Shown: one piece after another, positions 40,616 through 60,953 of the stretch | How the letters are laid out: each line of letters opens with the position of its first letter | Position numbering within the stretch: the stretch's first letter is position 1 | NCBI GenBank assembly: GCA_022703625.1 | Contig: JAKLDH010000002.1 | Span: forward strand, 1,462 to 65,461 | Origin: Cyanobacteriota bacterium | GTDB taxonomy: Bacteria; Cyanobacteriota; Vampirovibrionia; Gastranaerophilales; UBA9971 | Direction of reading: 5' to 3' | DNA length: 64,000 nt | The notes under the pieces: generated by a model | What the model was told of the DNA's origin: nothing | Database searches by the model: none | The model's input: the letters and a program-made list of their open reading frames with translations, nothing else | Translations under genes and position numbers: made by a program

Positions 40616-40667
40616 CGAATGTGTTCTTATGATACGGTTATTGCACAAATGGCTTTAAAAACAGAAA

Positions 40668-40687
40668 ATGCACGGTAATCTGTGAAT
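40668..40687 (+). promoter_or_regulatory. cassette leader L2 (subfamily A): ATGCACGGTAATCTGTGAAT
   Basis: Preceded by CTTTAAAAACAGAAA, shared with L3. It lies 28 nt upstream of ATG 40716. Confidence 0.45.
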
Positions 40688-40715
40688 ATAGAGAATAAAC
40701 AAAAGGAAAACAAAG

Positions 40716-40877
40716 ATGAATAAAGAATTACAAAGAATCGCAAAAACAATATTAGACCTTGAAACCTTAGAAACCAGAAACTCAGACAGCCTTGATTTTA
40801 AAGAGCAGGCAGTCTGGAATATCAAGGAAGCCTTAGAACAGGCTTACAAAGCAGGACAGCAATCAGTAAGTAAATAA
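40716..40877 (+). CDS. small conserved hypothetical protein (53 aa)
   Basis: Below the ORF-track cutoff. MNKELQRIAKTILDLETLETRNSDSLDFKEQAVWNIKEALEQAYKAGQQSVSK. A close paralog lies at 60959..61123(-), which supports a real gene. Confidence 0.65.
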   Translation: MNKELQRIAKTILDLETLETRNSDSLDFKEQAVWNIKEALEQAYKAGQQSVSK

Positions 40878-41131: not shown

Positions 41132-41455
41132 ATGACACAGGAAAAAACAATTGAAACAATTTATTACCAGTGCAGCAGTCAATCCTTAGTTTACAGAGAG
41201 CTTTATATCCTTAATAATAAAAAGATAAAGCTTGAAATTAAATCGGATTCTTACCGCAACCAGTGCTATGCAAGGACTTATGTATTAAAAGATGACGAGT
41301 GGAATATTTTATACAACGTGCCTTATGCCGAGATGGAAACTAAAGAAGGCTTAATATACCATCATGATTATAAAAAATGCCCACAAAAGGCACACAGCGA
41401 GTTTAGAAGCGATATTTTAAGGCTTAAAGACCTGACAAAACAACTATTGTCATAA
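41132..41455 (+). CDS. hypothetical protein, family shared with 61233..61568
   Basis: 107 aa, RBS aaggag. Shared core KLKLEIKSDSY(R/H)xQCYAR(T/A)YVLK(D/N)DEW. Confidence 0.65.
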   Translation: MTQEKTIETIYYQCSSQSLVYRELYILNNKKIKLEIKSDSYRNQCYARTYVLKDDEWNILYNVPYAEMETKEGLIYHHDYKKCPQKAHSEFRSDILRLKDLTKQLLS

Positions 41456-41493: not shown

Positions 41494-41539
41494 TGTCGAA
41501 ATGATTCTTCTTAACCTGAAAACACTTTAAAAACAGGAA

Positions 41540-41559
41540 ATGCACGCTATTGTGTGAAT
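41540..41559 (+). promoter_or_regulatory. cassette leader L3 (subfamily A): ATGCACGCTATTGTGTGAAT
   Basis: TTTAAA lies 16 nt upstream of TATTGT, giving -35/-10-like elements. It is followed by GTAAGCAATAAAGGAG and ATG 41583. Confidence 0.5.
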
Positions 41560-41582
41560 GTAAGCAATAAAGGAGCAAAACA

Positions 41583-41792
41583 ATGATGACACTTACAGAT
41601 AAAGAAAAAAGAAACTTTGAAAAATTTAGAGCCGAGTTAACAAGAATCTCCCAAAAGTATGGGGTAGCTATAAAATCAATAGGCGGGTTAATGGTGGGTG
41701 ACATAGCAGATATCGAATATAACGACGACCCTGAAAGCGGAGATTTATATCCTGAGATTTTAATGTGGCAGGAAGACGTAGAGGAGTTATAA
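41583..41792 (+). CDS. hypothetical protein, family shared with 60606..60953
   Basis: 69 aa. Shared core YG(V/I)A(I/V)KSIGG...IEY(N/S)DD(P/E)xSGDL. Confidence 0.65.
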   Translation: MMTLTDKEKRNFEKFRAELTRISQKYGVAIKSIGGLMVGDIADIEYNDDPESGDLYPEILMWQEDVEEL

Positions 41793-45086: not shown

Positions 45087-45599
45087 TTAAAACCTTCTAA
45101 CTGCTCGTGCCGGATTAAAAGGGATATATCTATCCTTAAGAGATTTTTCAAGAATACTTCCAAGCAACTTCACAATATTATCAATGCTTTTGGGAGAAAG
45201 ACCTTCAGTCAATTTCTGTTCAATAAACTGGTCAATATTTTCCGGCTTAATTTGTGTAACCCTAAATTCAATAAAAAATGGAATAAGATGTTTATTCAGA
45301 CTGCATTTATAGGATTTAAAAGTGGATGCTGTACATTTGTTTTCAGCTTCACGCATAAAGTTTTTTGATGCGGTTTCAAACCCTATTATTCCTTTTCTTA
45401 ATTGGGGTCTTTTGGTTTTCCTGACATTAGGAATATGCCTATATTTATCCCAGCTTAATTTTTGGATAATTTTGTCTGATAAGAGTTTATCAAGGATTTT
45501 AGCTATTTCATTCTCGTTTAAATCAGTCATTACAGCAATATCATCCAGCGTGAATATGTTTAGCCCTTTTATTATTTTCAAAACTTTGTCTTGAATCAT
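45087..45599 (-). CDS. wHTH + integrase SAM-like core-binding domain protein (no catalytic domain)
   Basis: 170 aa. FMREAENKCTASTFKSYKCSLNKHLIPFF...ENIDQFIEQKLTEGLSPKSIDNIVKLLGSILEKSLKDRYIPFNPARAV is the N-terminal SAM-like domain pattern of tyrosine recombinases. The ORF stops right after it. Confidence 0.7.
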   Translation of the reverse strand: MIQDKVLKIIKGLNIFTLDDIAVMTDLNENEIAKILDKLLSDKIIQKLSWDKYRHIPNVRKTKRPQLRKGIIGFETASKNFMREAENKCTASTFKSYKCSLNKHLIPFFIEFRVTQIKPENIDQFIEQKLTEGLSPKSIDNIVKLLGSILEKSLKDRYIPFNPARAVRRF

Positions 45600-46281
45600 T
45601 CTTTAATATCTCCTTTATTATGTTTTCATCAATCAATTCAATATTATTGGTCTTGGCAACAGCTTCCAGTCTGCTAATAATTCGCACAATCTGCCTGAAC
45701 CTGTTTGCCTGGGTGTGAATAAAATTTACAGCAGGTTCTGTTATTTCTACTTCGCAAAGCTGTGTAACTATATCCTGTACATCATTTACAGAGAACGCTT
45801 TAAATTGGATTATTTCTGACAGCCTGTCATATAAATGCCTGTATTTTTGCAGTTTCTTTTCAGCTAATGTCATTCCAACAAAAATAATCGGGACATTCGT
45901 TTTATCATGAATGTCCCGAATTGTTTCTATTGTTTTCTGGTCGCCTGCAAGGTAATCAACCTCGTCAATAATTATCATCTGAGGTCGCTCTATAAGTTTA
46001 TTTACAGCCTGTTTAAACAATTCTGATGTCCAGTATTGCGGAATCTCTCCGAGTTCCTCAACAAGTTCTTCAAGAAACCATCTCCCGCTCATAAGGTTTG
46101 CGCTTCGTATGTAGACAGCATCATTTTGTGCTGCAAGCCATAAGGCTGTTCGTGATTTTCCAAGTCCCGGCTCTCCATAAACAAGTGCCATTCTTGAAAC
46201 CCCGTCAGGTTTATTCTGCAGGGAATTTATCAGGGCTATAAAGTTTTTAACGTTTTGTGTTTTTACAAAGATTTTACGCAT
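45541..46281 (-). CDS. MuB/TniB-like AAA+ transposition ATPase (copy 1)
   Basis: Start at ATG 46281 by comparison with copy 2. Walker A GEPGLGKSRTA and Walker B IIIDEVD. Confidence 0.8.
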   Translation of the reverse strand: MRKIFVKTQNVKNFIALINSLQNKPDGVSRMALVYGEPGLGKSRTALWLAAQNDAVYIRSANLMSGRWFLEELVEELGEIPQYWTSELFKQAVNKLIERPQMIIIDEVDYLAGDQKTIETIRDIHDKTNVPIIFVGMTLAEKKLQKYRHLYDRLSEIIQFKAFSVNDVQDIVTQLCEVEITEPAVNFIHTQANRFRQIVRIISRLEAVAKTNNIELIDENIIKEILKNDSRQSFENNKRAKHIHAG

Positions 46282-46288
46282 ATATATT

Positions 46289-48304
46289 TTATTCTCCATA
46301 TATCATTCTAAATTCATCACTGTTTTTGTAGTTCTGCAACCACTTTCGCTCTTCTGCTGAAGTGCAGCCATTCTCCATAAGCCACTCGTAGCGTTCATAG
46401 TTATTCAAAAATACAGGACGCAGTTTTTCTGGAATTGCTATCGGTTCTTTTTTAACTCCTTCCGGTGGAATTTCTTGCGGGATAGTTTCTTCAATCATTT
46501 GTGTCTCTAAAAATTTGATATCTTCTTTAGGCAGGTATTTTTTGATTGTCCGAAGTGTTCGATTACGTAATTGGGCTGGCTTTTTAATCTTTTGGATAAA
46601 ATCTTCCCTGTCTTTAATATCGCCAAGATGATATGCCATCGGGTGCGTTCCTGTAACTCTTTTTGCTGTGCATAAATATTCGCCTCTTGTTGAATAGACC
46701 TTGATTTTACTGAGGTTAAATAGACTGTATCTAATCATTACTCTGTCCCTGAGTCCGTATAAAGCATCGCTGTTGTAATCAGTGTTTAAAAACCTTATGC
46801 CGTTGCGATTTATTGTCTTTACCTCATGCGCCATCATTAGCTCATCAAGCTCATTGATGCCTATATTCTGCCTTATTCTACCCTCAAAAACCTGCTTTAT
46901 GCTCATTGTTCTATCATTAGGACATGGCTGGGAGTGCCTGTAGCTTAACCACGCATCAACAAACCGGATTGTTTCTTCAACAGTCGGGATATATCCCTGA
47001 TTGATTTTGTCATATAACTCTTTATGCAGTTTTTCATTGCGTTTCATATGAGCCGGTTTGTTTGCGATATTGCTGCCGGTGTATGTGGGTAGCAGTTTTT
47101 CAAACTCTTCCTGAAATTCTTTGAAGAAGCGTTCTATGACTTTAGCCCGGGCATTGTAGGGCTTGGCATAAACAGGCTTTATTCCAAGTTTGGTGTATAT
47201 TCCACTAAATCCGGCTTCTGTGAAGTCAGTTGATTTGGAAAAATATTTTGCTTTAAAAGCCTTTCCATTGTCCTGATAAACAATTCTTGGAATCATATCA
47301 AGGTTAATAATTGCCATACGCAGGGCTGAAGCTATACATTGGGTATTCTCTTCAAGCATAATTTCATATCCACACAAATAACCTGACTTCCAGTCAAGGA
47401 AGGCAACAATAACCGCCCTGCACGGTCTGCCTGTAAAGGGATTTAAGACAAGGAAGTTTAAACGGTGTCCGTCTGCTACTAAAACATCCCCGACTTCAAT
47501 TTTTGAAATGTCCCTGGATAAATATGGTTCGACCTTATCCCGAAGTGCCTTTTCCCCTTCTCGCATAAGTATCCACTTGTCATAATTCTGTCTCCTGAAA
47601 TATTCTGCGTATCTACGGAAGGTTATTGGTTTTGGAATATCTTCAATTCCTTTCTTTTCAAGAATATGGGTTGTAAGTTTTATTGCCTTACCAATGCTGA
47701 ATTGGTTTGGATGCAGGAGCAGTTTTAAAAATATTCCGATTTCTTCTTCTGTCAGCGTAGTTTTATACTCATCTGAATTTGTGTAATGGTACTGTGGGAC
47801 AAGAGCTTCCCAGTTTTCGTATTCAGAATAAAGTTTGTTCCAGCGCAGCAGGCTGCCTCTGGAGGTTTTACCAATAAGTCGGAACACATTTTTAAGATAT
47901 TCACCTGAGTTGTACAAATCAAGGAATAATTTATCCCCTTCGTGTTTTGGACTATGTTTATTCCTGAATTTTATCCATTCCTGAATCAAATCAACTTTTG
48001 CAAGAGCAACAGTCTTTGCCTGCGCCGGAATGAATCCTGATTCAGTCTGAACAGGTTTTTCAATCGGCAGAAGAATGTCATGATTTACCGTTTCAACTAT
48101 TTCCCTGTAATAAGTGTTTTTGTAAACCTCCTGAACCTGTGGCTCAAGGGAGGATAAAAGTATCTCATAACTTTTTCCTCCCTGAGTTTTTGTTTCCCTG
48201 AAAATATATTTACCTTTGCTTAAAGCTATTCTTAATGCTCGTGAAGTTACCTGTTTTATTTCTGCGATTGTTTTCAGGTCAACCCATAAGTTATTATCAC
48301 TCAT
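46289..48304 (-). CDS. Mu-type DDE transposase (copy 1)
   Basis: 671 aa. N-terminal HTH-like region, and DDE candidates in VLVADGH, YQDNGKAF and AKVIERFF. Confidence 0.85.
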   Translation of the reverse strand: MSDNNLWVDLKTIAEIKQVTSRALRIALSKGKYIFRETKTQGGKSYEILLSSLEPQVQEVYKNTYYREIVETVNHDILLPIEKPVQTESGFIPAQAKTVALAKVDLIQEWIKFRNKHSPKHEGDKLFLDLYNSGEYLKNVFRLIGKTSRGSLLRWNKLYSEYENWEALVPQYHYTNSDEYKTTLTEEEIGIFLKLLLHPNQFSIGKAIKLTTHILEKKGIEDIPKPITFRRYAEYFRRQNYDKWILMREGEKALRDKVEPYLSRDISKIEVGDVLVADGHRLNFLVLNPFTGRPCRAVIVAFLDWKSGYLCGYEIMLEENTQCIASALRMAIINLDMIPRIVYQDNGKAFKAKYFSKSTDFTEAGFSGIYTKLGIKPVYAKPYNARAKVIERFFKEFQEEFEKLLPTYTGSNIANKPAHMKRNEKLHKELYDKINQGYIPTVEETIRFVDAWLSYRHSQPCPNDRTMSIKQVFEGRIRQNIGINELDELMMAHEVKTINRNGIRFLNTDYNSDALYGLRDRVMIRYSLFNLSKIKVYSTRGEYLCTAKRVTGTHPMAYHLGDIKDREDFIQKIKKPAQLRNRTLRTIKKYLPKEDIKFLETQMIEETIPQEIPPEGVKKEPIAIPEKLRPVFLNNYERYEWLMENGCTSAEERKWLQNYKNSDEFRMIYGE

Positions 48305-48419
48305 TATTATTGCCTTTTACTTAAATTAACTCATTGGCAATGATAACTCTCCTATCACAAAAATAAAGTCTATTTCCGAGAGATGTGTCAGGTTTGAAAC
48401 ACTTTTAAATGGAAAAAAC

Positions 48420-48824
48420 TTAATTAATTCCAAAAAATTTTTTATTGCCTTGCTGCAATTTGAGGAACTCAGCTCTTAATCTTGTGGCTATATCTTCATT
48501 TGAGTCTAATAAATATATTTTATCTGGACAGATGATATTTTCATTTTCTTCACCTTTATTGTTGCTACTATCAAAATAAGAATAATCTGTGTAAACATCA
48601 TAAATTCCGTGATTTAAAATTTTCTGAACATAATATTCAAAGGAATTTTTTATATTATAAAAAAAGCATATTTGTCTATGGTTTCCATTTTGTTCAATTC
48701 CCTGAGCATCAACTTCCCTTACGGTTTTTCCACGGTCAGAAATATCAGAACTATTTGCAAATACATGTACATCAGCTAAATCTGCTGGATTGTAATATAA
48801 CCAGTCACAGTGAGGATGAAGCAA
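48420..48824 (-). pseudogene. AT-rich ORF with TTG start and no RBS; possible gene remnant
   Basis: 134-aa ORF with no recognisable family and no SD. It lies between the two head-to-head transposase genes. Confidence 0.25.
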
Positions 48825-48858
48825 ATAATACCTATGTTTATTGTATTTAATCAGGCAA

Positions 48859-49071
48859 TTCGAGTCAAAATGCAGACTTGGAAATCAGGCATAAACTCTT
48901 GATATATTTACATTTAATGCCTGTTGAATCAGTTTGAGCCATTTTGCAGTTTTTGCCTTTTTTCTGCAAAATTTAGGATGAGCCAAAATCCGTAGATAAT
49001 CCTCAAGTTTACTGTTGTGGCAGGATTTAAGGCATTGCAAGAATTGTGCAATTAGTTCGAGCCATTTTGCA
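48859..49071 (+). repeat. direct repeats of a 16-bp motif TTYGAGYCAWWWTGCA (3 clear copies + 1 partial)
   Basis: Copies at 48859-48874 (TTCGAGTCAAAATGCA), 48933-48948 (TTTGAGCCATTTTGCA) and 49056-49071 (TTCGAGCCATTTTGCA). A partial copy, GATGAGCCAAAATCCG, lies at 48977-48992. The second and third copies share about 25 bp including flanks. Confidence 0.6.
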
Positions 49072-49269
49072 TTTTTGAAAAGCTGGAAATAGCCGGAAGT
49101 TCGTTTTAAAAATTTTACAATTATCAGGAAGTTTTAAATAAAATATTCCTGCTTCTATTTATTTGAATGATTCAGAACAGACATAAATGTCGGAAAATGA
49201 CTTTAATTCTGAGCTATAGGATTTATAATGCCAATGACGCACTAATCCAAGCGAAAGAGGCAAAATATT

Positions 49270-51279
49270 ATGAATCCCAATATTATCTGGATTGATTTAA
49301 AAACAGCAGCGGAGATAAAAGATATTACTCCACGAGCCTTGAGATTAGCTCTTGCAAAGGGTAAATATACTTCTCGAGAATCCATTACTCAAGGCGGAAA
49401 AAGCTATGAAATTCTTTTATCTTCACTTGAGCCAAGAGTTCAGGAGATTTACAAAAATAAATATTATCAGGAAATAGTTGAACTGGAAGCCCAGATTATT
49501 CATATAACAAAACCTGAACCAATCGAATCAGGCTTTATTCCTGAAACAGCCAGAACAGTTGCACTTGCAAGATTAGATTTAATTCAAGAATGGCAACGGT
49601 TTAGAAAAGAGCATAAGCCTAAGAATAAAGGTGATAAACTATTTCTTGATTTATACAACTCAGGAGAGTATCTTAAAACTATTTTTCAGCTAATCGGTTC
49701 AACCTCAAGAGGAAGCCTTCAACGCTGGCATCGAAGTTATACAGAATATGAAAGCTGGGAAGCTTTAGTTCCTCAGTATAAATATACAAGTTTTAACGAG
49801 TATAAAACAATTTTATCGGAAGAAGAAATTGGAATATTTTTAAAAATTCTCCTGCACCCGAATCAATTTAATATCGGCAAGGCAATAAAACTTACAAAAC
49901 ATATTCTTGAAAAAAGAGGGTTTACTGATATACCTCAGCCGATTACATTTCGCAGATACGCTGAGTGGTTCAGGAAAAACAATTATGACAAGTGGGTTTT
50001 AATTAGAGAAGGTGAAAAAGCACTTGCTGATAAAGTTTCTCCATATATAAAAAGAGATATTTCAAAAATCAAAGTAGGTGAAATTCTTGTAGCTGACGGT
50101 CATAAGCTAAATTTTCTTGTACTAAACCCATTTACAGGCAAACCCTGTAGGGCAACAATTGTAGGTTTCTTAGACTGGAAATCAGGATATTTTGTAGGTT
50201 ATGAAATTATGCTTGAAGAAAATATTCAATGCATCGCCTCAGCTCTTAGAATGGCAATTATTAACCTTGATATAATTCCTCTTATTTCTTATCAGGATAA
50301 CGGCAGAGCTTTTAAAGCAAAATATTTCAGCGAATCCGCTGATTTTACGGAAGCAGGATTTAACGGAATATACACTAATCTTGGAATAAAACCAGTCTAC
50401 GCTAAACCTTACAATGCTAAAGCGAAGGTTATCGAAAGATTTTTTAAAGAATTTCAGGAAGAATTTGAAAAACTTCTGCCTACATATATAGGAAGCAGTA
50501 TAGAGAATAAACCGGCACATATGAAAAGGAATGAAAAATTCCACCTTGAATTGTATAACAGAATTAACAAGGGCTACGTTCCAACAATTGAAGAAGCAAT
50601 AAAGCTAATCGACTGCTGGCTTGATTACAGACACTCTCAACCCTGCTCCAATGATAGAAGCAAAACAATAAAAGAAGTTTTTGAATCAAGAGAACGGCAA
50701 AATATAGATAAGTCAAAACTTGATGATTTGATGATGGCTTATGAGGTAAAAACTATCCACCGTAACGGCATCAGGTTTTTAAGCTCCGATTATAACAATG
50801 ATTCACTTTATGGCTTAAGAGACAGAGTAATGGTTAAATACAGCCTGTTTGACCTCTCCAAAATTAAGGTTTATTCAACAAAAGGCGAATATTTATGCTC
50901 AGCTAAAAGAGTAACAGGAACTCACCCAATGGCTTATCATATGGGTGAAGTTAAAGATATGGAGGATTTTAAGCAAAAGATTCAAAAACAAAAACGGCTT
51001 AAAAATAGAACTTTAAGAACTATAAAGAAATTCTTACCTAAAGAAGATATTAAATTTCTTGAAACCCAGATGGATTTAGAAAGAATAGAGCAGGAAATCC
51101 CTGCAATAGAAGTCAAAAGCGAACCTCTGATTTTAGAAGATAAATTAAAACCTGTATTTATGAATAATTACGAAAGGTATGAATGGCTTATGAAAAATGG
51201 ATGCACAAGTCCTGAAGACCGCAGCTGGCTTCAAGAGTATAAAAATAGCGAAGAATATCAATTAATCTATGGGGAATAA
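49270..51279 (+). CDS. Mu-type DDE transposase (copy 2)
   Basis: 669 aa, collinear with copy 1 and roughly three-quarters identical by eye. Confidence 0.85.
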   Translation: MNPNIIWIDLKTAAEIKDITPRALRLALAKGKYTSRESITQGGKSYEILLSSLEPRVQEIYKNKYYQEIVELEAQIIHITKPEPIESGFIPETARTVALARLDLIQEWQRFRKEHKPKNKGDKLFLDLYNSGEYLKTIFQLIGSTSRGSLQRWHRSYTEYESWEALVPQYKYTSFNEYKTILSEEEIGIFLKILLHPNQFNIGKAIKLTKHILEKRGFTDIPQPITFRRYAEWFRKNNYDKWVLIREGEKALADKVSPYIKRDISKIKVGEILVADGHKLNFLVLNPFTGKPCRATIVGFLDWKSGYFVGYEIMLEENIQCIASALRMAIINLDIIPLISYQDNGRAFKAKYFSESADFTEAGFNGIYTNLGIKPVYAKPYNAKAKVIERFFKEFQEEFEKLLPTYIGSSIENKPAHMKRNEKFHLELYNRINKGYVPTIEEAIKLIDCWLDYRHSQPCSNDRSKTIKEVFESRERQNIDKSKLDDLMMAYEVKTIHRNGIRFLSSDYNNDSLYGLRDRVMVKYSLFDLSKIKVYSTKGEYLCSAKRVTGTHPMAYHMGEVKDMEDFKQKIQKQKRLKNRTLRTIKKFLPKEDIKFLETQMDLERIEQEIPAIEVKSEPLILEDKLKPVFMNNYERYEWLMKNGCTSPEDRSWLQEYKNSEEYQLIYGE

Positions 51280-51281
51280 AA

Positions 51282-52082
51282 ATGAAAAAGACTTTTGTCA
51301 GAACTCAAAATGTTAAAAACTTTATCTCGCTTATGAACTTGCTTCAAAGTAAACCTGATGGAGTTCCAAGAATGGCGTTGGTTTATGGAGAGCCTGGACT
51401 TGGTAAATCAAGAACAGCTCTTTGGTGGGCTGTAAAAAATGATGCAGTATATTTAAGAAGCTCCAATATGATGTCAGGAAGGTGGTTTCTGGAAGAGCTT
51501 GTTGAAGAACTGGGTGAAACTCCTTATTACAAAACATCAGATCTTTTTAAACAATGCGTAAACCAGCTTCTTCAAAATCCAAGAACTATACTGATTGATG
51601 AAATAGATTATTTAACAGGAGATTCAAGAACAATAGAAACCATCAGGGATATTCACGACAAAACCAATGTTCCAATTGTTATGCTTGGAATGAATAAAGC
51701 AGATAAAAAAATTATGCGATACCGCCACGTTTATGATCGTTTAAGCGAAATCCTCAAATTTGAATTATTTTCATTAACTGAGATACAAAGCATTATAACT
51801 CAGCTGTCAGAAGTTGAAATTACTGAGGATGCAGTAACTCTTATTCACTCTCAGGCTAATCGCCTGCGGCAGATAGTCGGGTTGATTAATAAAGCTGAAA
51901 AGTTAGCTCAGGCAAACGGTTTATCAAGAATAAATGCAGAAATTTTAAAAACAGGTGCCAGTGAAATTTTAGCTGAAACAAAAGTAATAAAAGATATAAG
52001 GAATGAGCTTATACAGCTCCCGCATTCGCAAAGGAGTAAAATTGATGAAAGACAAAATCCTCAAAATAGTCAAAGGGCTTAG
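51282..52082 (+). CDS. MuB/TniB-like AAA+ transposition ATPase (copy 2)
   Basis: 266 aa with GEPGLGKSRTA and LIDEID motifs. Confidence 0.8.
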   Translation: MKKTFVRTQNVKNFISLMNLLQSKPDGVPRMALVYGEPGLGKSRTALWWAVKNDAVYLRSSNMMSGRWFLEELVEELGETPYYKTSDLFKQCVNQLLQNPRTILIDEIDYLTGDSRTIETIRDIHDKTNVPIVMLGMNKADKKIMRYRHVYDRLSEILKFELFSLTEIQSIITQLSEVEITEDAVTLIHSQANRLRQIVGLINKAEKLAQANGLSRINAEILKTGASEILAETKVIKDIRNELIQLPHSQRSKIDERQNPQNSQRA

Positions 52083-52560
52083 AAAATTTACTATTGAAGA
52101 TATATCCATAATTGCAGAACTTGATGAAGAGGAAATTTATCCTTTAATTGAGCAGATGGTATCGGAGCAGAAAATAATTCAAATAAGCCATGATCAGTAT
52201 ATGAAAGCTGAAAAAATTATAAAAACAAAAAGGGAAACAACTAAAAAAGGAAAAATCGGTTTTAAAAAAGCGGCTCAGAATTTTATGACAGAGGCTGAAA
52301 ATAAATGTACGCCATCAACTTTTAAATCCTATAAAAGTGCATTTAATAAACATTTAAGCCCATTTTTTCAAGAATTTAGAATATGCGAAATTAAACCTGA
52401 AAATATTGATGAATTTATAGAACAAAAAATAGAGGAAGGGCTTTCAAATAAAACTATAGATAATATTGCCAAATTACTTGGCAGTATTCTGGAGAAGGCT
52501 CTTAAAGACAGGTATATTCCTTTTAATCCTGCAAGAGCGGTTAAAAAGCTTTATCTATAG
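52045..52560 (+). CDS. wHTH + integrase SAM-like core-binding domain protein (copy 2)
   Basis: Start at ATG 52045, after AAAGGAG. It is collinear with 45087..45599 and again ends just after ...FNPARAV. Confidence 0.7.
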   Translation: MKDKILKIVKGLRKFTIEDISIIAELDEEEIYPLIEQMVSEQKIIQISHDQYMKAEKIIKTKRETTKKGKIGFKKAAQNFMTEAENKCTPSTFKSYKSAFNKHLSPFFQEFRICEIKPENIDEFIEQKIEEGLSNKTIDNIAKLLGSILEKALKDRYIPFNPARAVKKLYL

Positions 52561-52561
52561 C

Positions 52562-53503
52562 TTAAGATCTTATTGTCCATAAAACTTTGTCTATTTTTCT
52601 TGGTGTCCAGAAATCAGTTTTAAATGCATTATTTAGTTCTATGGTCTTTTCTCGCAAAATAGCAGTTAACTCAACAAAATCTCTATTTTTTATCGCAATA
52701 GGATTTATATCTTGAACAATTTTGTTTAAAGACGATATATTTTGCAAATTTATGACCAAAAATTGATCAACAGTTCCGTATATTTCTGGAAATAGTAAAG
52801 ATAATAATCCTGAAGCTCCAGCTACACCCAAGCCTTTTATTTCGGAGGCAAGTTTTATCATTGTAAAAGATTCTTCTTTATCTGAAACAAAAAGAATACG
52901 TGAAATTATTTCATCAATTTTAGCATTATCATTTTGGTAAGCTTTTTTAAAAGCTGCTGTAGTTGTAGCGTATCTATTTGGAGCTGTGTATTTCCATTTG
53001 AAATATTTATTAAGTAAAAAGTCATACCAAGAGTTACCAAGTTCCAATTTGTCCAAATCGTTGGGTTTTCTTACGACACAAAGCTTTTCTTCAAGCTCAA
53101 TTTCAATATTATAATTTTCATCTTTTACTCTGGAATAATAACTTGATAAAGCATTAGTCCATTTTTCTTCATCACAACTATTCCATAATGAAGTAATAGA
53201 AATTAAATTCGCATTATTAGATTTAGCAATTTTAATTAATTCTGTATGTGTTTTGATTGGAATAAACTTAAAATCTTCCAGAGATTTAAGTTTATTCATT
53301 GTTTCTCTACTCCCAGTGATAAGCCATTCAAGGTCGACATTGAATTTTTCATAAATATTTACAAAAAATTTCAGATCGGGTTCTTTTTCCGATGCTTCAT
53401 ATAGATTAATATCTGATTCTGGAATATTTAACTCCAGAGCAAATTGAGATATATCAAGATTTTTTAAATTTCTGAATTCTTTTAATCTATTTCCAAAAGT
53501 CAT
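52562..53503 (-). CDS. XRE-HTH fusion protein with uncharacterised C-terminal domain (HhH-like GLGVAGASGLL motif)
   Basis: 313 aa, visibly AT-rich. The N-terminal HTH reads FGNRLKEFRNLKNLDISQFALELNIPESDINLYEASEKEP. The C-terminal domain of about 230 aa is unassigned. Confidence 0.6.
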   Translation of the reverse strand: MTFGNRLKEFRNLKNLDISQFALELNIPESDINLYEASEKEPDLKFFVNIYEKFNVDLEWLITGSRETMNKLKSLEDFKFIPIKTHTELIKIAKSNNANLISITSLWNSCDEEKWTNALSSYYSRVKDENYNIEIELEEKLCVVRKPNDLDKLELGNSWYDFLLNKYFKWKYTAPNRYATTTAAFKKAYQNDNAKIDEIISRILFVSDKEESFTMIKLASEIKGLGVAGASGLLSLLFPEIYGTVDQFLVINLQNISSLNKIVQDINPIAIKNRDFVELTAILREKTIELNNAFKTDFWTPRKIDKVLWTIRS

Positions 53504-53558: not shown

Positions 53559-54251
53559 TTAAAATACGCTTTTTCCATGCCATACAACTTTACCTATAAC
53601 TGCAAAAGAATCTTCATCTTTTAAATCAACTTCAAAAGTCGGATGCTCAGGATTATCACTCTTTATTTGAAGTTTTTCTTTAGGCATTAAAGAAAGCCTT
53701 TTAACTAGAAGAGTATTATCAAATCTGACAACAAAAATACCATCTCTGATACGTTTATCCGAGGTGTCTATCATAATCAGATCGCCATTTTTAATGGTAG
53801 GCTCCATCGATTCGCCATGAGCTGTAAATATAACTAAATCAGGCTTAGAGCCGCAAATATTTTTATTAAACCAATCAATTTTAAAAGCAAAATGGTCTAT
53901 AACTGTTTCTTCATCAACAATACATCCATGCCCGGCAGCCGCTCTAATATCATAAATAGGAATATACACATAATCGCTGCTGCAGACATCAAAGTTTTTC
54001 TTGCTTTCTTCTGTTGCAAACATTGCACCTTTTCCAAAAAGAAGCCATTCTGTATTTGCACCCAAATGTTCCGCAATAAGAGCCAAATATTCTACGGTAG
54101 GCTTTCGCTCACCTTTTTCATAATTACTTATAGATTTATACGGGACATTTATCATTCTGCTTAACTCTGAGACGTTAAGAGCAGACTGCACCCTGATTTC
54201 TCTGAGTCTGTCACCTATATTATTTAATGCTTTAATTTTTTGTTCGCTCAT
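53559..54251 (-). CDS. CI/LexA-like repressor (XRE HTH + S24 peptidase)
   Basis: 230 aa. HTH LNVSELSRMINVPYKSISNYEKGERKP. S24 catalytic context HGESMEPTIKNGDLIMID and LLVKRL. Confidence 0.85.
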   Translation of the reverse strand: MSEQKIKALNNIGDRLREIRVQSALNVSELSRMINVPYKSISNYEKGERKPTVEYLALIAEHLGANTEWLLFGKGAMFATEESKKNFDVCSSDYVYIPIYDIRAAAGHGCIVDEETVIDHFAFKIDWFNKNICGSKPDLVIFTAHGESMEPTIKNGDLIMIDTSDKRIRDGIFVVRFDNTLLVKRLSLMPKEKLQIKSDNPEHPTFEVDLKDEDSFAVIGKVVWHGKSVF

Positions 54252-54361: not shown

Positions 54362-54550
54362 ATGAATAAAAAAACTAGACTCGGTTGGTTTAAAAGTAAA
54401 CTTTTGCATAGAAACTTAACAATCGCTGATATCGCTATGGAGCTTGGTATCAGCGAAAGGCAAGTTTATAAACTTATTTGTGGTGACCATAAAAATGAAA
54501 AGTTTAAACAGTGGGTTATTAAACGTTTGGGCAATCCTATTTGGTTGTAA
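54362..54550 (+). CDS. Ner/Cro-like small DNA-binding protein
   Basis: 62 aa. HTH LTIADIAMELGISERQVYKLICG. Located between repressor and transposase. Confidence 0.65.
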   Translation: MNKKTRLGWFKSKLLHRNLTIADIAMELGISERQVYKLICGDHKNEKFKQWVIKRLGNPIWL

Positions 54551-54565: not shown

Positions 54566-56533
54566 ATGAGCAGGGAAACAATAAATACGAATAATTCGCT
54601 TTGGCTCGATGAAAATCAAGCCTGTTCTCTGCTTGGATTAAAACCGGATACTTTGAGGAAGAAATGCAGAGCCGGTGAGTATATTTTCAAAATAGTTAAA
54701 AAGTCTAAAACAAGTGAATATAAAGTGCTTTTGTCTTCTCTGCCAGAGCTTTATCAAAGCAAATATCAAAGCAGGTTTTTAAAAACTTCTGAATCTAATT
54801 TTGACCCGAATGTATATAATGATGCTCCTGATTGGGCAAAACGTCAGGCAGAAAAATATGTAACTATAATCAAACGTTCTGAAGGATTAAGAGGCAAAGA
54901 ATTAAAAGCTTTTATAAATGAATGGAATAAGGTTAATCCTGAATTTAGAACATCTTACGCCAGAGTTAATGATGCAAGGCTTAAATACTACACTGGCGGA
55001 ATTTCTGCATTACTTGCACAGTATGGAAAAACAGCAGGCAGCACAGTTGTTAAAGATAATCATTTTGAATATTTCAAAAGTCTGTATCTTAAAGAAGGTG
55101 CTCCTTCTCTTTATACCAGCTGGTTTTACACTTTAGGCTATGCCGTTAGAGTTGATGGAATCATAAAAGAAGCATTTCCTTCAAGATTTAGCTTTAAAAG
55201 AAGACTTTTACAGGAAATTCCAGAGCAGTCTATTTATCTTGCCAGATATGGTGAAGCTAAATGGAACAGAAGATATTCAAACTATATTGATAGAGATTAT
55301 TCTGGCATTAGATGCGGAAGTGTTTGGACATCAGACCATGCACAGCTCGATGTTGCTTGTGAAATAGAAGACGGCAGAGTTGTATTTCCATGGATTACTG
55401 CTTGGAGAGATTTTAAAGGAGGTAAATGGTTAAGCTGGATTTTACAGCCTGACAATCCTAATTCTGACCATATTTTTCAAACTTTTTACTATGCAGCAGA
55501 CGAGTACGGCATTCCTGAAGATATCATTATCGATAACGGTAAAGATTACAGAGCTAAGGATTTTGCAGGCGGCAGAAAAGTTCATAAAATTTCCGTTGAT
55601 GAAGTTAAAACAAATTCAATGCTTGATAATCTTGGAGTAAAAGCCCATTTTGCACTTCCATATAATGCTCAGACTAAAACTATTGAAAGAGATTTTCTTA
55701 AAATTAAAGAACTCTTCTCTAAGCATATGCAGGGTTACAGGGGCGGAAATGTAACAGAGCGTCCTGAAAAACTGAAAATTGAAATTAAACAGGGCAAGAT
55801 ATTGAAATTTAGTGAACTAAAAGAAATATTTAATGACTTCATAGAAAACGTATTTAATAAATACCCTTCAAATGGCAAGATTCTTCAGGGCAGATCATCT
55901 GATGAATTATGGGCGGAAGAATTTAGAGAAAAAAGAGTTGTTTCAAAAGATGCATTAAAGCTATTCTGCACAAGAACTTCAAAGACCTTCTCCATTACAC
56001 GAAACGGAGTAAAGGATTCAGAGCTTGGAATAACCTATTGGGCAGACTGGATGATTGGTGTAAAAGGCGAAAAAGTTTATTTAAGAAGAGATATAAAAAA
56101 TTACAATGAAGCCTGGATATTTAAAGCTGATAATGATGAATTTATAGGGAAGGCTCAAGTTTCTGAACTTGTCCCTGCACTTGCTTCTACTGAAATTGAA
56201 AAGAGCGAATTTAAAGAAGCTATGGCTGTTAAAAAACGTAATAAAAAAATAGCTAAAGCATATGCTAAAACTCAAGAAACAGACGTAAACGACAGAATGC
56301 TTAATCTGAAAGCAGCTGTTGGAGATAAAGAATACAAGGCAGAGCCTAAAATCTCCAAGATAGCTAATACAAAAATGGATAAAGTTATCAGAAAACAAAA
56401 TGATATTGAAAAAATAGGAACTTACGATTTATCAGGATTTGTGGATAAAAAACCTGAAAAGAGAAAGATTTACCTGTTTGAAAGCGACAAAGAATTAGAT
56501 GAACTGGCAATGGGAGCAGGATATGGATCTTAG
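54566..56533 (+). CDS. Mu-type DDE transposase (MuA-like, third lineage)
   Basis: 655 aa with an N-terminal HTH region. DDE candidates in WTSDHAQLD, IIDNGKDY and TKTIERDF. It is only distantly related to copies 1 and 2. Confidence 0.85.
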   Translation: MSRETINTNNSLWLDENQACSLLGLKPDTLRKKCRAGEYIFKIVKKSKTSEYKVLLSSLPELYQSKYQSRFLKTSESNFDPNVYNDAPDWAKRQAEKYVTIIKRSEGLRGKELKAFINEWNKVNPEFRTSYARVNDARLKYYTGGISALLAQYGKTAGSTVVKDNHFEYFKSLYLKEGAPSLYTSWFYTLGYAVRVDGIIKEAFPSRFSFKRRLLQEIPEQSIYLARYGEAKWNRRYSNYIDRDYSGIRCGSVWTSDHAQLDVACEIEDGRVVFPWITAWRDFKGGKWLSWILQPDNPNSDHIFQTFYYAADEYGIPEDIIIDNGKDYRAKDFAGGRKVHKISVDEVKTNSMLDNLGVKAHFALPYNAQTKTIERDFLKIKELFSKHMQGYRGGNVTERPEKLKIEIKQGKILKFSELKEIFNDFIENVFNKYPSNGKILQGRSSDELWAEEFREKRVVSKDALKLFCTRTSKTFSITRNGVKDSELGITYWADWMIGVKGEKVYLRRDIKNYNEAWIFKADNDEFIGKAQVSELVPALASTEIEKSEFKEAMAVKKRNKKIAKAYAKTQETDVNDRMLNLKAAVGDKEYKAEPKISKIANTKMDKVIRKQNDIEKIGTYDLSGFVDKKPEKRKIYLFESDKELDELAMGAGYGS

Positions 56534-57398
56534 AATTGAACTTAAAAAACTAATGCAGGAAAAAGGCTACAGCTTTCAGGCTGTGTCTCGTGCAACAGCA
56601 ATTTCAGCCACAACTCTTAATTTGTGGCTGAATAATAACTATGTCGGCAATCTTGATAAAATATCAGATTCTATTCACAGCTTTATTATTAGAGAAAAAG
56701 AAAGAAGATATAAGCAAACAATTCCGTTTGTTGAAACCAGTATTGCAAAAAATATTTTTGAAATAGCACAAATTTGCCATATTAATGGTGAAATTGGAGT
56801 CTGCTACGGCAGAGCAGGACTTGGCAAAACCTTTGCGGTTAAACAATATGCAAGGCAAAATTCTGACGTAATTTTGATTGAAACAGACCCCGGCTTTTCT
56901 ACAAGGACAGTTCTTTTAGAATTACATAAAAGACTTGGGCTTTCAGCTAAAGGAAGTCTTTATGCAATGACTCTTGAAATCATTGAGAGGCTTGAAAAAT
57001 CAGGCAGGCTTATTATTGTTGACGAGGCTGAAAATCTTCCGTATAAAGCACTGGAATTGTTAAGAAGAATTCACGATAAAACTGAAGCCGGAGTGTTACT
57101 TGTCGGTCTTCCTGCTCTTGTTGAAAACCTAAGAGGATTAAAAGGGCAGTATGAACAGCTTTATTCAAGGGTTGGCGTGTCAAAAAAACTTGAACCGCTT
57201 CAGTTTAATGATACAGAAATGATTTTAAAAGAAGTTTCTCAAGATATTGATGCAATAAGTGCTTTTCACGATTTATCAAAAGGAAATACCAGAGTTTTAT
57301 CAAAATTGATAATGAGATCAGCAAGAGTGGCTATTATCAATAAAACTTCTGTTGATAAATCAATAGTTGAAGAAACTTTCAAGATGCTTATTGTGTGA
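56523..57398 (+). CDS. MuB-like DNA transposition ATPase
   Basis: Start at ATG 56523, after GGAGCAGG. N-terminal HTH (KGYSFQAVSRATAISATTLNLW), Walker A GRAGLGKTF and Walker B IIVDEAE. Confidence 0.85.
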   Translation: MDLRIELKKLMQEKGYSFQAVSRATAISATTLNLWLNNNYVGNLDKISDSIHSFIIREKERRYKQTIPFVETSIAKNIFEIAQICHINGEIGVCYGRAGLGKTFAVKQYARQNSDVILIETDPGFSTRTVLLELHKRLGLSAKGSLYAMTLEIIERLEKSGRLIIVDEAENLPYKALELLRRIHDKTEAGVLLVGLPALVENLRGLKGQYEQLYSRVGVSKKLEPLQFNDTEMILKEVSQDIDAISAFHDLSKGNTRVLSKLIMRSARVAIINKTSVDKSIVEETFKMLIV

Positions 57399-57405: not shown

Positions 57406-57579
57406 ATGAAAAGTAAAGAAAAGATTTTTTATACATTTTTAATAATCCTATCAATATTCACTCTTGGAGTTCAAGTTGGAATTCATCATGGACGAGAACT
57501 TCAAAGGGTTGAAGATATTAGAATTCAGCGTATGCAGGAATATATTTTCAAAAATATGGCAAGATGCGAGGCTATATGA
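57406..57579 (+). CDS. small single-TM protein (kil-like position)
   Basis: Start at ATG 57406, after GAGGA. 57 aa with TM segment FYTFLIILSIFTLGVQVGI. Confidence 0.45.
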   Translation: MKSKEKIFYTFLIILSIFTLGVQVGIHHGRELQRVEDIRIQRMQEYIFKNMARCEAI

Positions 57580-58016
57580 TTACTAAAAATCAGATTAAAA
57601 AACTTCAAACTTTAAAAAAAGTCCTCAGCCTTTCTGATGACATATACAGGGATGTTCTTGAAATGTCTTTTAATGTTAATTCCTGTACAAAATTGACATC
57701 GGAGCAAGCAGGTATGCTTATTGATGATTTTGAAAATTCTGCAATTCAACTGGGATTATGGAATAAGCCAGAGTTGAAGTTTGAAAATCTTTCAAACAGA
57801 AAATCTATGGCAACTCCAAAACAGTTAAGAATGATTGAAGCTATGTGGAGGGAGGTGAGTTATCGAGAAGACGATGAATTTGTAAAGCAATCGCTTAGAA
57901 AGTTTCTGTCAGGTCATTTTTACGTTAGCGATTTAAGATTTATAGACAGAGCAAAAGCAAGCAAAATTATTAATGCGATTAAAAATATTAAAAAAAGTTG
58001 TTTAAAGACCAGTTAA
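57576..58016 (+). CDS. GemA/gp16 (DUF1018) family protein
   Basis: Start at ATG 57576, with an ATGA overlap. MITKNQIKKLQTLKKVLSLSDDIYRDVLE... is the family pattern. Confidence 0.7.
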   Translation: MITKNQIKKLQTLKKVLSLSDDIYRDVLEMSFNVNSCTKLTSEQAGMLIDDFENSAIQLGLWNKPELKFENLSNRKSMATPKQLRMIEAMWREVSYREDDEFVKQSLRKFLSGHFYVSDLRFIDRAKASKIINAIKNIKKSCLKTS

Positions 58017-58407: not shown

Positions 58408-58710
58408 ATGGAACTTAAACCATGGATGCAAAATTTAATGCCGGCAGATATGCCAAATTCCGAATTAAAAGAACTTGCTGAAGAATTTGGCATTCAATCT
58501 GCGTTGGAAGTTATTTCAGCGTGGGCTGGTCTTATTGTAAGCGTTCCAAAACAACCTTTTAGGGATTTATTAAACAAATATATTATTAACAATTATGATG
58601 GTACAAGGGCATCAATTGTTAAACTTGCCAAAGAATGCGAAGTTACTGACAGATATATTTACTATCTTTTAAAAAAGTTGAAAACGGCTAAAAATAGCTC
58701 TTCGATTTAA
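58408..58710 (+). CDS. Mor-family transcription activator
   Basis: 100 aa. NNYDGTRASIVKLAKECEVTDRYIYYLLKK is the C-terminal HTH. Paralog of 44416..44718. Confidence 0.75.
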   Translation: MELKPWMQNLMPADMPNSELKELAEEFGIQSALEVISAWAGLIVSVPKQPFRDLLNKYIINNYDGTRASIVKLAKECEVTDRYIYYLLKKLKTAKNSSSI

Positions 58711-59027
58711 ATTTCACCTTTTATTATTAAGTTTAAAACTTCCTCCTGTGAGAAATTATGCTCTTCACAGTACGAGTCAATCCATTTTAAATATTGTTTA
58801 ATTTGTTTATCGCAAAGTATTTCAAGATTCTGCTTGGCTTTGCCTTCTTCCATTGCTAAATATTCAAGCAATGCCTGTGCCGTAGGCTTATCAGGTTTTG
58901 AAGTTTTTACTTTAAGTTGGTCAACATCATCGTGAATTTTTTCAACTATTCCGATAACATCGTCAATTGCAATTTTCAAGTCATTGCCGACACCGTTAAG
59001 ATAGATTTTAAAGTCGATTTCGCTCAT
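58707..59027 (-). CDS. hypothetical ~105-aa protein, paralog family member 3
   Basis: Start at ATG 59027 (MSEIDFKIYLNGVGNDLKIAIDD...). It converges on and overlaps mor by 4 nt. This is the same arrangement as member 2 and mor in prophage 1. Confidence 0.65.
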   Translation of the reverse strand: MSEIDFKIYLNGVGNDLKIAIDDVIGIVEKIHDDVDQLKVKTSKPDKPTAQALLEYLAMEEGKAKQNLEILCDKQIKQYLKWIDSYCEEHNFSQEEVLNLIIKGEI

Positions 59028-59033
59028 AAAATA

Positions 59034-59074
59034 TTCCTTATGCTTGCTAACAGGTGTAATATTAGCTTGCATAT
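59034..59074 (-). promoter_or_regulatory. cassette leader L6 (subfamily B)
   Basis: The reverse complement is ATATGCAAGCTAATATTACACCTGTTAGCAAGCATAAGGAA, near-identical to L4. It overlaps the 3' end of the upstream AlbA_2-like gene. Confidence 0.5.
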
Positions 59075-60132
59075 GGGGATTTAGGTTTACTTGTGTCGGA
59101 ATATAATGTTTTGTCTTGTTTTATAAAATCAATTAATTCATTCTTATCATTAAAAATAAAAATTTTTTCATACTCATTTAATGCGTGTTTATTAAAGTAA
59201 TTTAAATCATAACCGGATAATTTTAAATTAGTGAAAATTTTATAAACTTTGTAATGAAAAGAATCTTCCAGAAAAAATCTGATTTCATTTAATTTACTAT
59301 AATCTATGTAAATATCATCACTAAGAATGTCTTTAACATAATAAACACTGCTATCTGGAAAAGGAAAATAATATCGAGCACCATCAACGCTTACAAACTG
59401 GCAGGTTGTAAGCGTTGTAGAATGATATTTAAAACTCAACTCATCAAGAAATACATCTTTTTTAGGCAAATGGTTTGCAAAAGAATAATTTTCTCTTCCT
59501 TTAGACTTAGAAGTTATAGTAAATTCAGGAAAATATTTGTAATAAAGCTGTAATCCGTTTATTTCGTCTGTGAAGTAATTCCAATTTTCAAAATCATCTA
59601 TATATGTATTTAGCCTTTCTAAGATGGATAAATTTAAACCAAATCTTTCTTTCCACATTTCAGCTATTTCATATTCAGAAGCTGTTGAATTAATTGGTGT
59701 GTTAGTTGGTCCACTTCTTGTGTAGATAACTCCTGCTCTTATTATTTTAGCTCTTATTATTTTAGCTTTTCCTTTTTCAGTTTTATCTTTTATTAAAAAA
59801 AATGGTTTAAATTTTGAATTTTTTATAATTAAAATATCAATTTCATGGTTATTGATATTAAGCGTTTCTAATTCTAATACTGGAATTTTATTTATATTAG
59901 ATGATTTAATAGTATCAATAATTTTTTCCAAATTTTTTCTTTTAGTATCGTTTTCAATACCTAAAATATTTCCGGTATTATCAACTCCAAATATAATATA
60001 ACGGTCTTTATCACATAACGAATTTGATAAACAAAGAAGGTCATGCACAAAATCAAGAGTATTATCATAATACTCTCTTTTAAAATCTAAATATTCACTC
60101 TCAGGTTCATTCAAAAGCAATTTTATATTCAT
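59062..60132 (-). CDS. AlbA_2 (Schlafen-like) domain protein, candidate defence/abortive-infection cargo
   Basis: 356 aa, very AT-rich. The N-terminus LLNEPESEYLDFKREYY...YIIFGVDNTGNILGI fits the AlbA_2 pattern. The C-terminal ~220 aa are unassigned. It contains an in-frame 15-bp tandem duplication at 59735-59764 (AKIIRAKIIR). Confidence 0.6.
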   Translation of the reverse strand: MNIKLLLNEPESEYLDFKREYYDNTLDFVHDLLCLSNSLCDKDRYIIFGVDNTGNILGIENDTKRKNLEKIIDTIKSSNINKIPVLELETLNINNHEIDILIIKNSKFKPFFLIKDKTEKGKAKIIRAKIIRAGVIYTRSGPTNTPINSTASEYEIAEMWKERFGLNLSILERLNTYIDDFENWNYFTDEINGLQLYYKYFPEFTITSKSKGRENYSFANHLPKKDVFLDELSFKYHSTTLTTCQFVSVDGARYYFPFPDSSVYYVKDILSDDIYIDYSKLNEIRFFLEDSFHYKVYKIFTNLKLSGYDLNYFNKHALNEYEKIFIFNDKNELIDFIKQDKTLYSDTSKPKSPYAS

Positions 60133-60156
60133 AAATTTTATTTTAACTAAAAAATA

Positions 60157-60594: not shown

Positions 60595-60605
60595 AGTTCT
60601 GTCTC

Positions 60606-60953
60606 CTACTCTGCCCATTTAACGCTGGGAATAAGGTCACCGCTGGTTTCATCATCACTGTATTCAATTTCCTGAATCTTGCCGATTTGAATTCCGCCGA
60701 TTGATTTTACTGCGATTCCGTACTCTTTTGATAATTCGGTTAATTCTCTGATAAATGCCTGATAATTAGTTTCTTTACGTTTTTTAACTGCCAGTATATT
60801 TTTAAGTTCAGGCGATAAATCTTTAGGTTTAAAGTTTTCAGGAGCTTTTAACACCTCATCAATCTCAGCGTAAACGGTTTCCATCATTTCAACATCTGCG
60901 GTTATTTCGTCCTGAATCTCAATTAATAATTCTGTATCTTTTTTGTTTATCAT
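60606..60953 (-). CDS. hypothetical protein, family shared with 41583..41792
   Basis: 115 aa. The C-terminal half is homologous (EYGIAVKSIGGIQIGKIQEIEYSDDETSGDL). Confidence 0.6.
   Translation of the reverse strand: MINKKDTELLIEIQDEITADVEMMETVYAEIDEVLKAPENFKPKDLSPELKNILAVKKRKETNYQAFIRELTELSKEYGIAVKSIGGIQIGKIQEIEYSDDETSGDLIPSVKWAE

Follow-up and report, generated by a model that had tools for sequence, protein, structure and literature searches.

Facing Mu-like prophages in a Gastranaerophilales chromosome belong to a tRNA-seeking Mu/Tn7-type family, one of them carrying two transposase sets

A 64,000-nucleotide stretch of a Gastranaerophilales metagenome-assembled genome (MAG), here called the window, carries two head-to-head copies of a module consisting of a MuA-type transposase gene (A), an ATPase gene (B) and a third gene, with a further MuA/MuB pair about 2 kb behind the second copy. 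How did two related transposition modules come to face each other, and why does one of them stand next to another transposase set? The original prediction saw here a natural record of Mu-in-Mu or Mu-next-to-Mu transposition. We find that the window has four parts (all positions are window coordinates, with the prefix w where confusion could arise): host chromosome up to 15.5 kb, prophage 1 in reversed orientation, a 423-bp remnant of the 3' part of a host gene, and prophage 2 running outward from 48842. The prophages are two distinct transposable Mu-like phages in a Gastranaerophilales (Melainabacteria) chromosome, with their left ends facing. The explanation that best joins all observations, to which we give a probability of roughly 0.6, is that the A-B-third modules of these facing prophages belong to a tRNA-seeking family, that the two transposition sets of phage 2 form one unit, and that the third protein acts as the target selector.

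The open reading frames (ORFs) of the original prediction were all recovered at their positions. In copy 1, on the minus strand, A1 (46289-48304) encodes a DDE transposase of the MuA/TnsB type with rve and Mu-transpos_C domains and the D-D-E residues in the motifs ADGH, QDNG and VIERF, B1 (45541-46299) encodes an AAA+ ATPase with AAA_22/TniB matches and the Walker A and B motifs GEPGLGKS and IIIDEVD, and the third gene (45087-45599) encodes a protein of 170 aa. Copy 2, on the plus strand, holds the paralogues A2 (49270-51279), B2 (51282-52082) and a third gene of 171-185 aa (52003-52560). Using BLASTP, we found 75% identity over 671 aa with 2 gaps between A1 and A2, 67% over 223 aa between B1 and B2, and 60% over 170 aa between the two third proteins; as DNA, the arms are 73-80% complementary. 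These values bear out what had been judged by eye, namely collinear transposases about three-quarters identical, accompanied by paralogous ATPases and third genes in mirror order. The alignable stretch reported upstream of both transposase starts was also found; it spans about 100 bp at about 70% identity and contains a block kept in every family relative examined. Pfam detected Mu-transpos_C (PF09299) in A1, A2 and the transposase of the additional pair, A3, some of which also have the rve and Mu I-gamma domains, and AAA_22 in all three ATPases, B1 and B2 giving weak TniB matches (PF05621) as well; the sole Pfam match of the third genes is the integrase N-terminal SAM-like domain. The D-D-E triads, read from protein alignments, are intact in all three transposases. 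The additional pair had been called unrelated; however, A3 matches A1 at 24% identity (E 8e-22; 23-24% for A1 and A2, E 1e-20), which makes it a distant homologue. Between copies 1 and 2 the nonsynonymous divergence pN is 0.16-0.24 and the synonymous divergence pS about 0.75. Because synonymous change is saturated while pN is held well below it, the split is old and both copies have been maintained.

The DNA between the two modules shows that the phages are neighbours. An earlier map left 48420-48842 as intergenic, yet this interval holds the 423-bp fragment, about 140 codons on the minus strand, of a host gene that we call gene X, its 5' side cut by phage 2. A 134-aa ORF within it (48420-48824, minus strand) is the 3' part of a protein of about 228 aa, whose full-length homologue P0002 has 228 aa and is 70% identical. 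Among the relative loci fetched for comparison (L-numbers), L175 has the full gene X upstream of rplC, and L174 has a relative among housekeeping genes. Nucleotide homology between L175:623-990 and w48841-48474 ends at the phage 2 junction, and the reading frame is open across it. We had also considered the 134-aa ORF as a phage regulator and rejected this, as the homology to P0002 and L175 identifies a truncated host gene. Since phage 2 interrupts gene X 441 bp from phage 1, the two phages are adjacent and not nested; of the two possibilities originally raised, Mu-next-to-Mu holds and Mu-in-Mu is not supported. A search for the 5' half of gene X, which would mark the phage 2 right end, found nothing, and tRNA and Rfam scans between the two phages were negative.

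Phage 2 starts at w48842/3 with a TGT-type terminus, 5'-(T)TGTATTTAATCAGG, and its right end lies beyond the window. The left arm (48842-49269, plus strand) carries four direct copies of GAGYCAWWWW[GC]C[AG] within 230 bp, starting at 48862, 48936, 48980 and 49059, three of them within longer units AATCAG..TTYGAGYCAWWWWGCA, followed by the conserved block at 49168-49185. The terminus resembles the left end TGTAATTTAACGACC set by the comparison of L117 with L118 described below. A 16-mer from the left-arm repeat, searched against IMG/VR, gave 70 chance matches, none related. In one MEGAHIT assembly (ERZ27257480), contig k141_591021 begins at 48842 and contig k141_420600 ends at 48982, which is 48842+140, that is, plus k minus 1. 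In another sample, the SPAdes contig ERZ795055 NODE_275 has its end near 48896, a position computed arithmetically and not read. We infer that the left end of phage 2 adjoins more than one flanking sequence in those communities, the pattern that active transposition or packaging of a Mu-like phage would give. Of the sigma-70-like matches in 48.2-49.4 kb, the best one (48840-48868, minus strand, TTGACT-17-TACAAT) faces outward from this terminus with its -10 element spanning the junction; it could transcribe the gene X fragment and continue into A1. This interval has no more promoter-like sites than shuffled controls.

The ends of phage 1 give a different picture. Its closest relative, L094, has a 92% identical A protein and 83% nucleotide identity from w48409 to w45478. 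L094 lies 528 bp after a tRNA-Ala gene; its left arm, with ATGGGA repeats, measures about 330 bp and is shared by L009, which lies at a tRNA-Val gene. The phage 1 homology ends about 10 bp before the family-wide conserved block TGTTTCAAACCTGACACA (48384-48401) in the A1 leader (48305-48410, minus strand), and the left arm of about 330 bp is absent from the window; the gene X stop codon follows 18 nt after the block. We ruled out this block, about 100 bp upstream of A, as the general terminus of the family on account of the longer left arms in L117/L118, L012 and L094. On the other side, 28 bp separate the host gene stop at 15542 from the stop of a G-like gene at 15571. The candidate termini TGTTTCAAACC (48401, minus strand) and TGTTATTCAAG (15569) both have TGTT..TCAA. 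Inverted repeats, sought by seeds and local alignment between the A-upstream regions and 15.3-16.1, 44.6-45.4 and 52.0-53.7 kb, gave only AT-rich chance matches. The host-phage 1 junction is identical in five contigs from 4-5 samples, and no empty site was seen among these contigs, as 5/5 with the host flank also carry phage 1. Phage 1 is, by these comparisons, probably fixed, an immobile prophage whose left arm has been lost. Because at least one assembly, and probably two, breaks at the phage 2 terminus while the phage 1 junction is constant in five contigs, the data suggest that phage 2 is mobile and phage 1 fixed.

An all-versus-all comparison of the window ORFs revealed that the mirror symmetry continues beyond the module, which had been overlooked. 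The Mor-like gene of phage 1 (44416-44742, minus strand) pairs with 58408-58710 (plus strand) in phage 2, 43439-43753 with 58707-59072, 41583-41792 with 60606-60953, 41132-41455 with 61233-61568, and the DUF6900 gene 40716-40877 with 60959-61123 (83% identity), at 39-83% amino acid identity overall. As mirror homologues resume right of 58.4 kb, copy 2 opens a second phage with a middle region like that of phage 1. The interval 52.56-58.4 kb is an extra stretch in phage 2 that phage 1 lacks; there, mor follows the third gene after only 345 bp. One of the scenarios first put forward, that copy 2 opens a related second prophage owning mor at 58408 and the convergent late region, is upheld in this part; its other part, an interruption by inserted DNA, is taken up below.

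We then consider the family to which the modules belong. A scan of one genome per GTDB species returned 442 relatives of A1/A2, nearly all in Gastranaerophilales/Melainabacteria/Vampirovibrio MAGs and often several per genome. Among the A copies in fetched loci with at least 1.6 kb of upstream DNA (n=115), 38 are preceded within 1.6 kb by a tRNA or tmRNA gene, in every case on the strand of A and never on the other, against about 3.6 expected from the tRNA density of the same loci (binomial P 3e-28). The genes behind which A copies lie are of 15 kinds, 14 tRNA specificities and tmRNA. In one subgroup, a near-identical terminus, TATAGGTTTTCAGGACA, occurs 40-140 bp after Ser, Leu and Tyr tRNA genes and after tmRNA, usually directly after the terminator; one subgroup terminus begins TATAGG. 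Insertion of the family is Tn7-like and orientation-specific, with the transposase-proximal end toward the tRNA gene, and not Mu-like. In L120 (2472-2510) and L133 (about 9610-9661), partial older left ends are stacked before complete elements behind the same tRNA gene, which indicates repeated insertion at one site truncating the earlier resident.

An alternative is that A-B-third is an autonomous transposon habitually hitch-hiking at, or targeting, the left ends of Mu-like phages, rather than phage machinery. Sister branches of the family are indeed small transposons whose cargo varies, namely 6.8-kb elements close to tRNA-Asn and a subgroup with a four-gene core and unrelated cargo; A3 follows the module in only 6/88 copies with enough downstream DNA, and the outer left arm of phage 2 has TTTTGCA-type repeats as in elements with A-B-third only. 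However, the DNA behind the two third genes holds no inverted copy of the left arm or terminus, and the third-gene stop borders on coding sequence. Phage 1, L007, L009 and L094 have the module alone, with mor and phage genes right behind it and no A3 set, so the module can be the sole transposition system of a phage. We consider the hitch-hiking alternative unlikely. The related proposal that the unit is a three-gene transposon present twice does not fit the window, where there is no room for a right end behind the third genes and synteny runs into phage genes; it is true of the sister branches.

In phage 2 the module is followed by a classical Mu early region. One nucleotide after the copy 2 third-gene stop, as originally noted, begins an AT-rich minus-strand gene (52562-53503, about 30% G+C) for a helix-turn-helix (HTH) protein like the RstR or spr1629 repressor or antitoxin, which is specific to phage 2 and absent from L010. 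It is followed by a c-type repressor gene (53559-54251, minus strand; HTH_3 and Peptidase_S24, of the S24/LexA type, with a 59% identical homologue in L010) and, on the plus strand, by a gene for a small ner-like HTH protein kept upstream of every A3-type gene (54362-54550), the classical MuA-type transposase A3 (54566-56533; Mu I-gamma HTH and Mu-transpos_C, D-D-E in SDH, IDNG and TIERD), the MuB-type ATPase B3 (56499-57398; N-terminal HTH and AAA_22), GemA (57564-58016; PF06252, E 2e-18) and the Mor-type late activator (58408-58710; PF08765), homologous to its counterpart in phage 1. The domains confirm the c-ner-A-B-gemA-mor region predicted at 53.6-58.7 kb. The double layout, A-B-third and then, in the same direction, (c) ner-A3-B3-small membrane protein-gemA-x-mor, occurs in all nine A3-type loci with enough upstream DNA: the window, L010 (a MAG), L088, L089, L090 and L091 (IMG/VR contigs), and L108, L117 and L118 (metagenome contigs). 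L010 shows 59-76% identity.

Could a classical Mu-like phage (c-ner-A3-B3 and so on) have transposed by accident into or next to an A-B-third phage, behind its third gene? The extra stretch does look like a self-contained Mu early region and has no phage 1 counterpart, but the same order in 9/9 assessable loci, at 50-76% protein identity, speaks against such nesting. Behind the third gene, the next gene begins after 1 nt in the window, after 6 nt in L010 and after about 330 bp in L088-L091, which lack a c gene; such gaps leave no room for a separate Mu attL. Furthermore, L117 and L118 share 97-98% identity across the 12-13.6 kb fetched, a stretch that includes both transposase sets, yet lie behind two different tRNA-Ser genes with unrelated flanks. 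Their identity starts 60 and 94 bp after the tRNA, at TGTAATTTAACG, read as 5'-TGTAATTTAACGACCGG, followed by three direct repeats. As these loci are identical at different tRNA-Ser sites, the double set has moved recently as one unit whose left end lies outside the A-B-third module. Accidental nesting is therefore improbable, and the interruption proposed in the original prediction is not borne out, as the Mu block is kept behind the third gene in every assessable locus and has moved together with it. By this sequence comparison, the two transposition sets of phage 2 are one mobile unit, not nested or adjacent elements. Both L117 (8922-9809, minus strand) and L118 also carry a class A beta-lactamase-like gene in the left arm (PF13354, E 1e-39).

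The third protein is a candidate for the targeting function. Profile searches with it matched only integrase N-terminal domains. In an AlphaFold model (AF2; predicted local distance difference test score, pLDDT, 81), residues 1-54 form a winged helix, followed by a disordered linker and a four-helix bundle, which in the PDB best matches the core-binding domains of integrases, Tn1549 Int and lambda Int among them. As modelled, the third protein in both copies is a winged helix joined to a tyrosine-recombinase core-binding (SAM-like) domain, with no catalytic domain. Its 12 database homologues all have 169-176 aa; because they share this size, the short protein is maintained and not a pseudogene. 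In other relatives, the third position is taken by full Xer-like recombinases with conserved R, R, H and Y (384 aa in L009, about 572 aa in L014 and L017), some with an extra Mu I-gamma-like HTH; these full recombinases are possibly active. Other subgroups keep the winged helix only. A stand-alone tyrosine-recombinase catalytic domain of about 180 aa, with R, HxxR, H and Y present, is encoded in 29/166 family copies, divergently upstream of A in the tRNA-Asn subgroup and after the G-like gene in some related phages; examples are L027 8806-9345 (minus strand), L086 7669-8211 and the end of the L091 contig, where this small recombinase gene follows a G-like gene and the right end is not reached. 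It has no homologue in the window. Together with third genes that encode only DNA-binding domains, it hints at a split recombinase; some branches have the core-binding domain in the third gene, whereas in the tRNA-Asn branch this gene is a winged helix only. An inactivated tyrosine recombinase, TnsF, serves as a Tn7-type target selector in Tn6022-like elements (PMC10293859, Faure et al. 2023).

By analogy with TnsD or TnsF, the third protein would bind DNA at or near tRNA genes as target selector and recruit B, which would in turn activate A at a nearby site with a fixed polarity. In the double-module phages, A-B-third would set up lysogeny at harmless sites, whereas A3-B3, under c/ner control, would carry out replicative transposition in lytic growth after induction. 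Several points weigh against this reading as a whole. Neither window phage adjoins a tRNA gene, and about two thirds of the family copies have none within 1.6 kb upstream, which means that there must be another pathway of lower specificity. How the two transposases would share the work is purely conjectural. To act on one pair of ends, transposases as different as these (24% identity) would have to rely on composite ends or shared sites, of which we identified none; the phage 2 left arm shows a single repeat family, assignable to neither the A2 nor the A3 protein. Elements of the phage 1 type manage on A-B-third alone, and A3-B3 is not required for a phage lifestyle. The phage 2 right end lies outside the window, and a complete phage 2 with a terminal inverted repeat and a target duplication is a supposition. 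The candidate termini of phage 1 at 15569 and 48401 are flanked by unlike 5-mers, CGATA and CTTTT, and its lost left arm is read from the comparison with L094 and L009 only. Finally, the facing arrangement is left unaccounted for: it may reflect resident ends attracting newcomers, a permissive spot or chance. L014, L017 and L132 likewise contain divergent pairs from the family, often with a degraded partner; because A sits at the left end, 10-kb flanks reveal facing pairs only, and any excess of them over other arrangements would be conjecture.

An assembly artefact, in which two related phages were joined at their similar left ends by a chimeric or fold-back event, is very improbable. The source is a MAG, and assembly ERZ27257480 breaks between the copies; however, the 0.97 kb between the A genes are asymmetric, contain a genuine interrupted host gene and have no shared repeat at the junctions. 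The join runs unbroken through a 55-kb JGI contig and through the 67-kb contig of the NCBI Candidatus Gastranaerophilales MAG to which the window's proteins are annotated, the ENA graph contigs overlap by exactly k, and the constancy of the host-phage 1 junction across five contigs points the same way. Intramolecular replicative transposition of the Mu type gives inverted copies flanking an inverted segment, and divergent pairs do recur in the family, but an origin of this pair by self-copying of one phage can be dismissed as next to impossible because the copies are only 60-75% identical in protein with synonymous sites saturated, and the phages have different tails (myovirus versus siphovirus) and different early regions.

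The remaining gene content accords with two different phages. Prophage 1 (15569-48410, minus orientation, exact ends uncertain) combines a Mu-like head with a myovirus tail according to PHROGs and Pfam. The gpG-like gene (15571-16014) is followed by Mu F, portal, terminase and two DNA methyltransferase genes up to 22.4 kb, all on the minus strand; protease, major head, sheath, tube, tape measure, baseplate, fibre and M15 endolysin genes occupy 22.9-40.3 kb on the plus strand, and small genes then lead to the Mor-like gene on the minus strand. Portal_Mu, Phage_Mu_F, Mu-like_Pro_N, Mu_Gp36 and the G-like gene make up its morphogenesis set, and no c or ner gene stands next to A1. The two methyltransferase genes (15986-16930 and 17695-18660, minus strand) lie inside the head/packaging operon. 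The tail-fibre gene 36207-36890 (plus strand) encodes an Mtd_N (major tropism determinant) domain, and no reverse transcriptase was noticed nearby. Phage 2 continues with a convergent middle/late region (58707-64000, minus strand) that includes a SLFN_AlbA_2 moron, DUF6900, an M23 endolysin and a J-type tail fibre; for its morphogenesis, the tail and lysis part is what we see. Beyond the window, a siphovirus tail module encodes a 925-aa tape measure, a 1089-aa protein, a Tail_L-like protein and the J-type fibre. Two genes specific to phage 2 are very AT-rich (about 25-30% G+C), the SLFN_AlbA_2 gene (59062-60132, minus strand) and the RstR/spr1629-like HTH gene behind the module; they are probably morons, possibly with a role in defence or immunity. 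A repeat of about 35-47 nt, CTTTAAAAACAGrAAATGCACG..., occurs at 40653-40699 and 41525-41571 and, inverted, at 61141-61175 and 24139-24170; it sits upstream of small genes in both phages and is a candidate shared middle/late promoter or Mor site. The host part (1-15542) encodes a P-type heavy-metal ATPase, the arsenic operon ArsP/ArsA/ArsD and a DsbD-like membrane protein that ends at 15542, as identified by Pfam; the gene adjoining the heavy-metal ATPase (1433-1822, plus strand) has two cysteine-rich internal repeats of 87 nt that are 76% identical.

Transposable phages are the textbook case of random integration and Tn7-like elements that of site-specific integration; the elements described here appear to combine a random-integrator phage with a Tn7-style, orientation-specific preference for positions behind tRNA genes. 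What is new is a tRNA-seeking Mu/Tn7-type family and a phage lineage with two transposase sets, not a Mu-in-Mu record. INPHARED holds no close relatives of the phages, with a best identity to any sequenced phage of about 25-30%, and our literature search found no paper on a tRNA-seeking Mu/Tn7-type family of Melainabacteria or on a double-transposase phage lineage. We know of no phage with a two-transposase life cycle. A bolder interpretation, which we regard as possible but doubtful, is that Melainabacteria harbour an undescribed class of TnsA-less and TniQ-less Mu/Tn7-type elements with a tyrosine-recombinase-derived selector for tRNA/tmRNA genes generally, some of them merged with Mu-like phages in such a way that one transposase set serves tRNA-proximal lysogeny and a classical Mu set serves replicative growth. 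If the combination of a phage with Tn7-style targeting is confirmed, these elements would provide a natural system for studying how phages and transposons exchange target-selection modules. They would also amount to a compact insertion system guided by protein, whose target class is broad yet safe, and would give a first view of temperate phages in uncultured Gastranaerophilales.

Compared with known systems, the window phages share with the Mu group (Mu, D3112/B3-like siphoviruses and BalMu-1) the MuA-type DDE transposase with Mu-transpos_C, the MuB-type ATPase, the c/ner/gemA/mor order of phage 2, the Mu-like portal, F, protease, gp36 and G of phage 1, and a phage 2 left end that starts with TGT and carries repeated sites. 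They differ in that A1 and A2 stand right at the left end, with no c/ner, and have a recombinase-derived third gene behind them, that the family prefers sites behind tRNA genes whereas insertion in the Mu group is near-random, and that one lineage has two transposase/ATPase pairs. The Tn5053/Tn402 elements (TniA-TniB-TniQ-TniR) likewise have a transposase, a TniB-like ATPase (here the weak PF05621 match) and a third gene for targeting or resolution, and lack TnsA; here, in contrast, no TniQ or serine resolvase was found and the target is not a res site. The tRNA-homing CRISPR-associated transposons (V-K, I-B2, I-D) of cyanobacteria also insert in Tn7 fashion downstream of tRNA genes in the same phylum, whereas the elements here have no CRISPR/Cas and use one terminus type behind several tRNA species. 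Neither a TnsA domain nor TniQ/TnsD was detected in the module proteins or the neighbours scanned, and the operon is predicted to encode TnsB- and TnsC-type homologues (rve and Mu-transpos_C; AAA_22/TniB). There is also an apparent likeness to the Tn7-like elements that use TnsF (Tn6022-like, PMC10293859), which have a TnsB/TnsC-type core with a catalysis-less tyrosine-recombinase-derived selector, as seems to be the case here, insert with fixed orientation downstream of a conserved host gene, and stack new copies as seen in L120 and L133. The putative selector of the present family is smaller, at 170 aa, and consists of a winged helix and core-binding domain only, without the TnsF zinc fingers; its targets are many tRNA/tmRNA genes instead of comM, and the cargo can be a whole phage.

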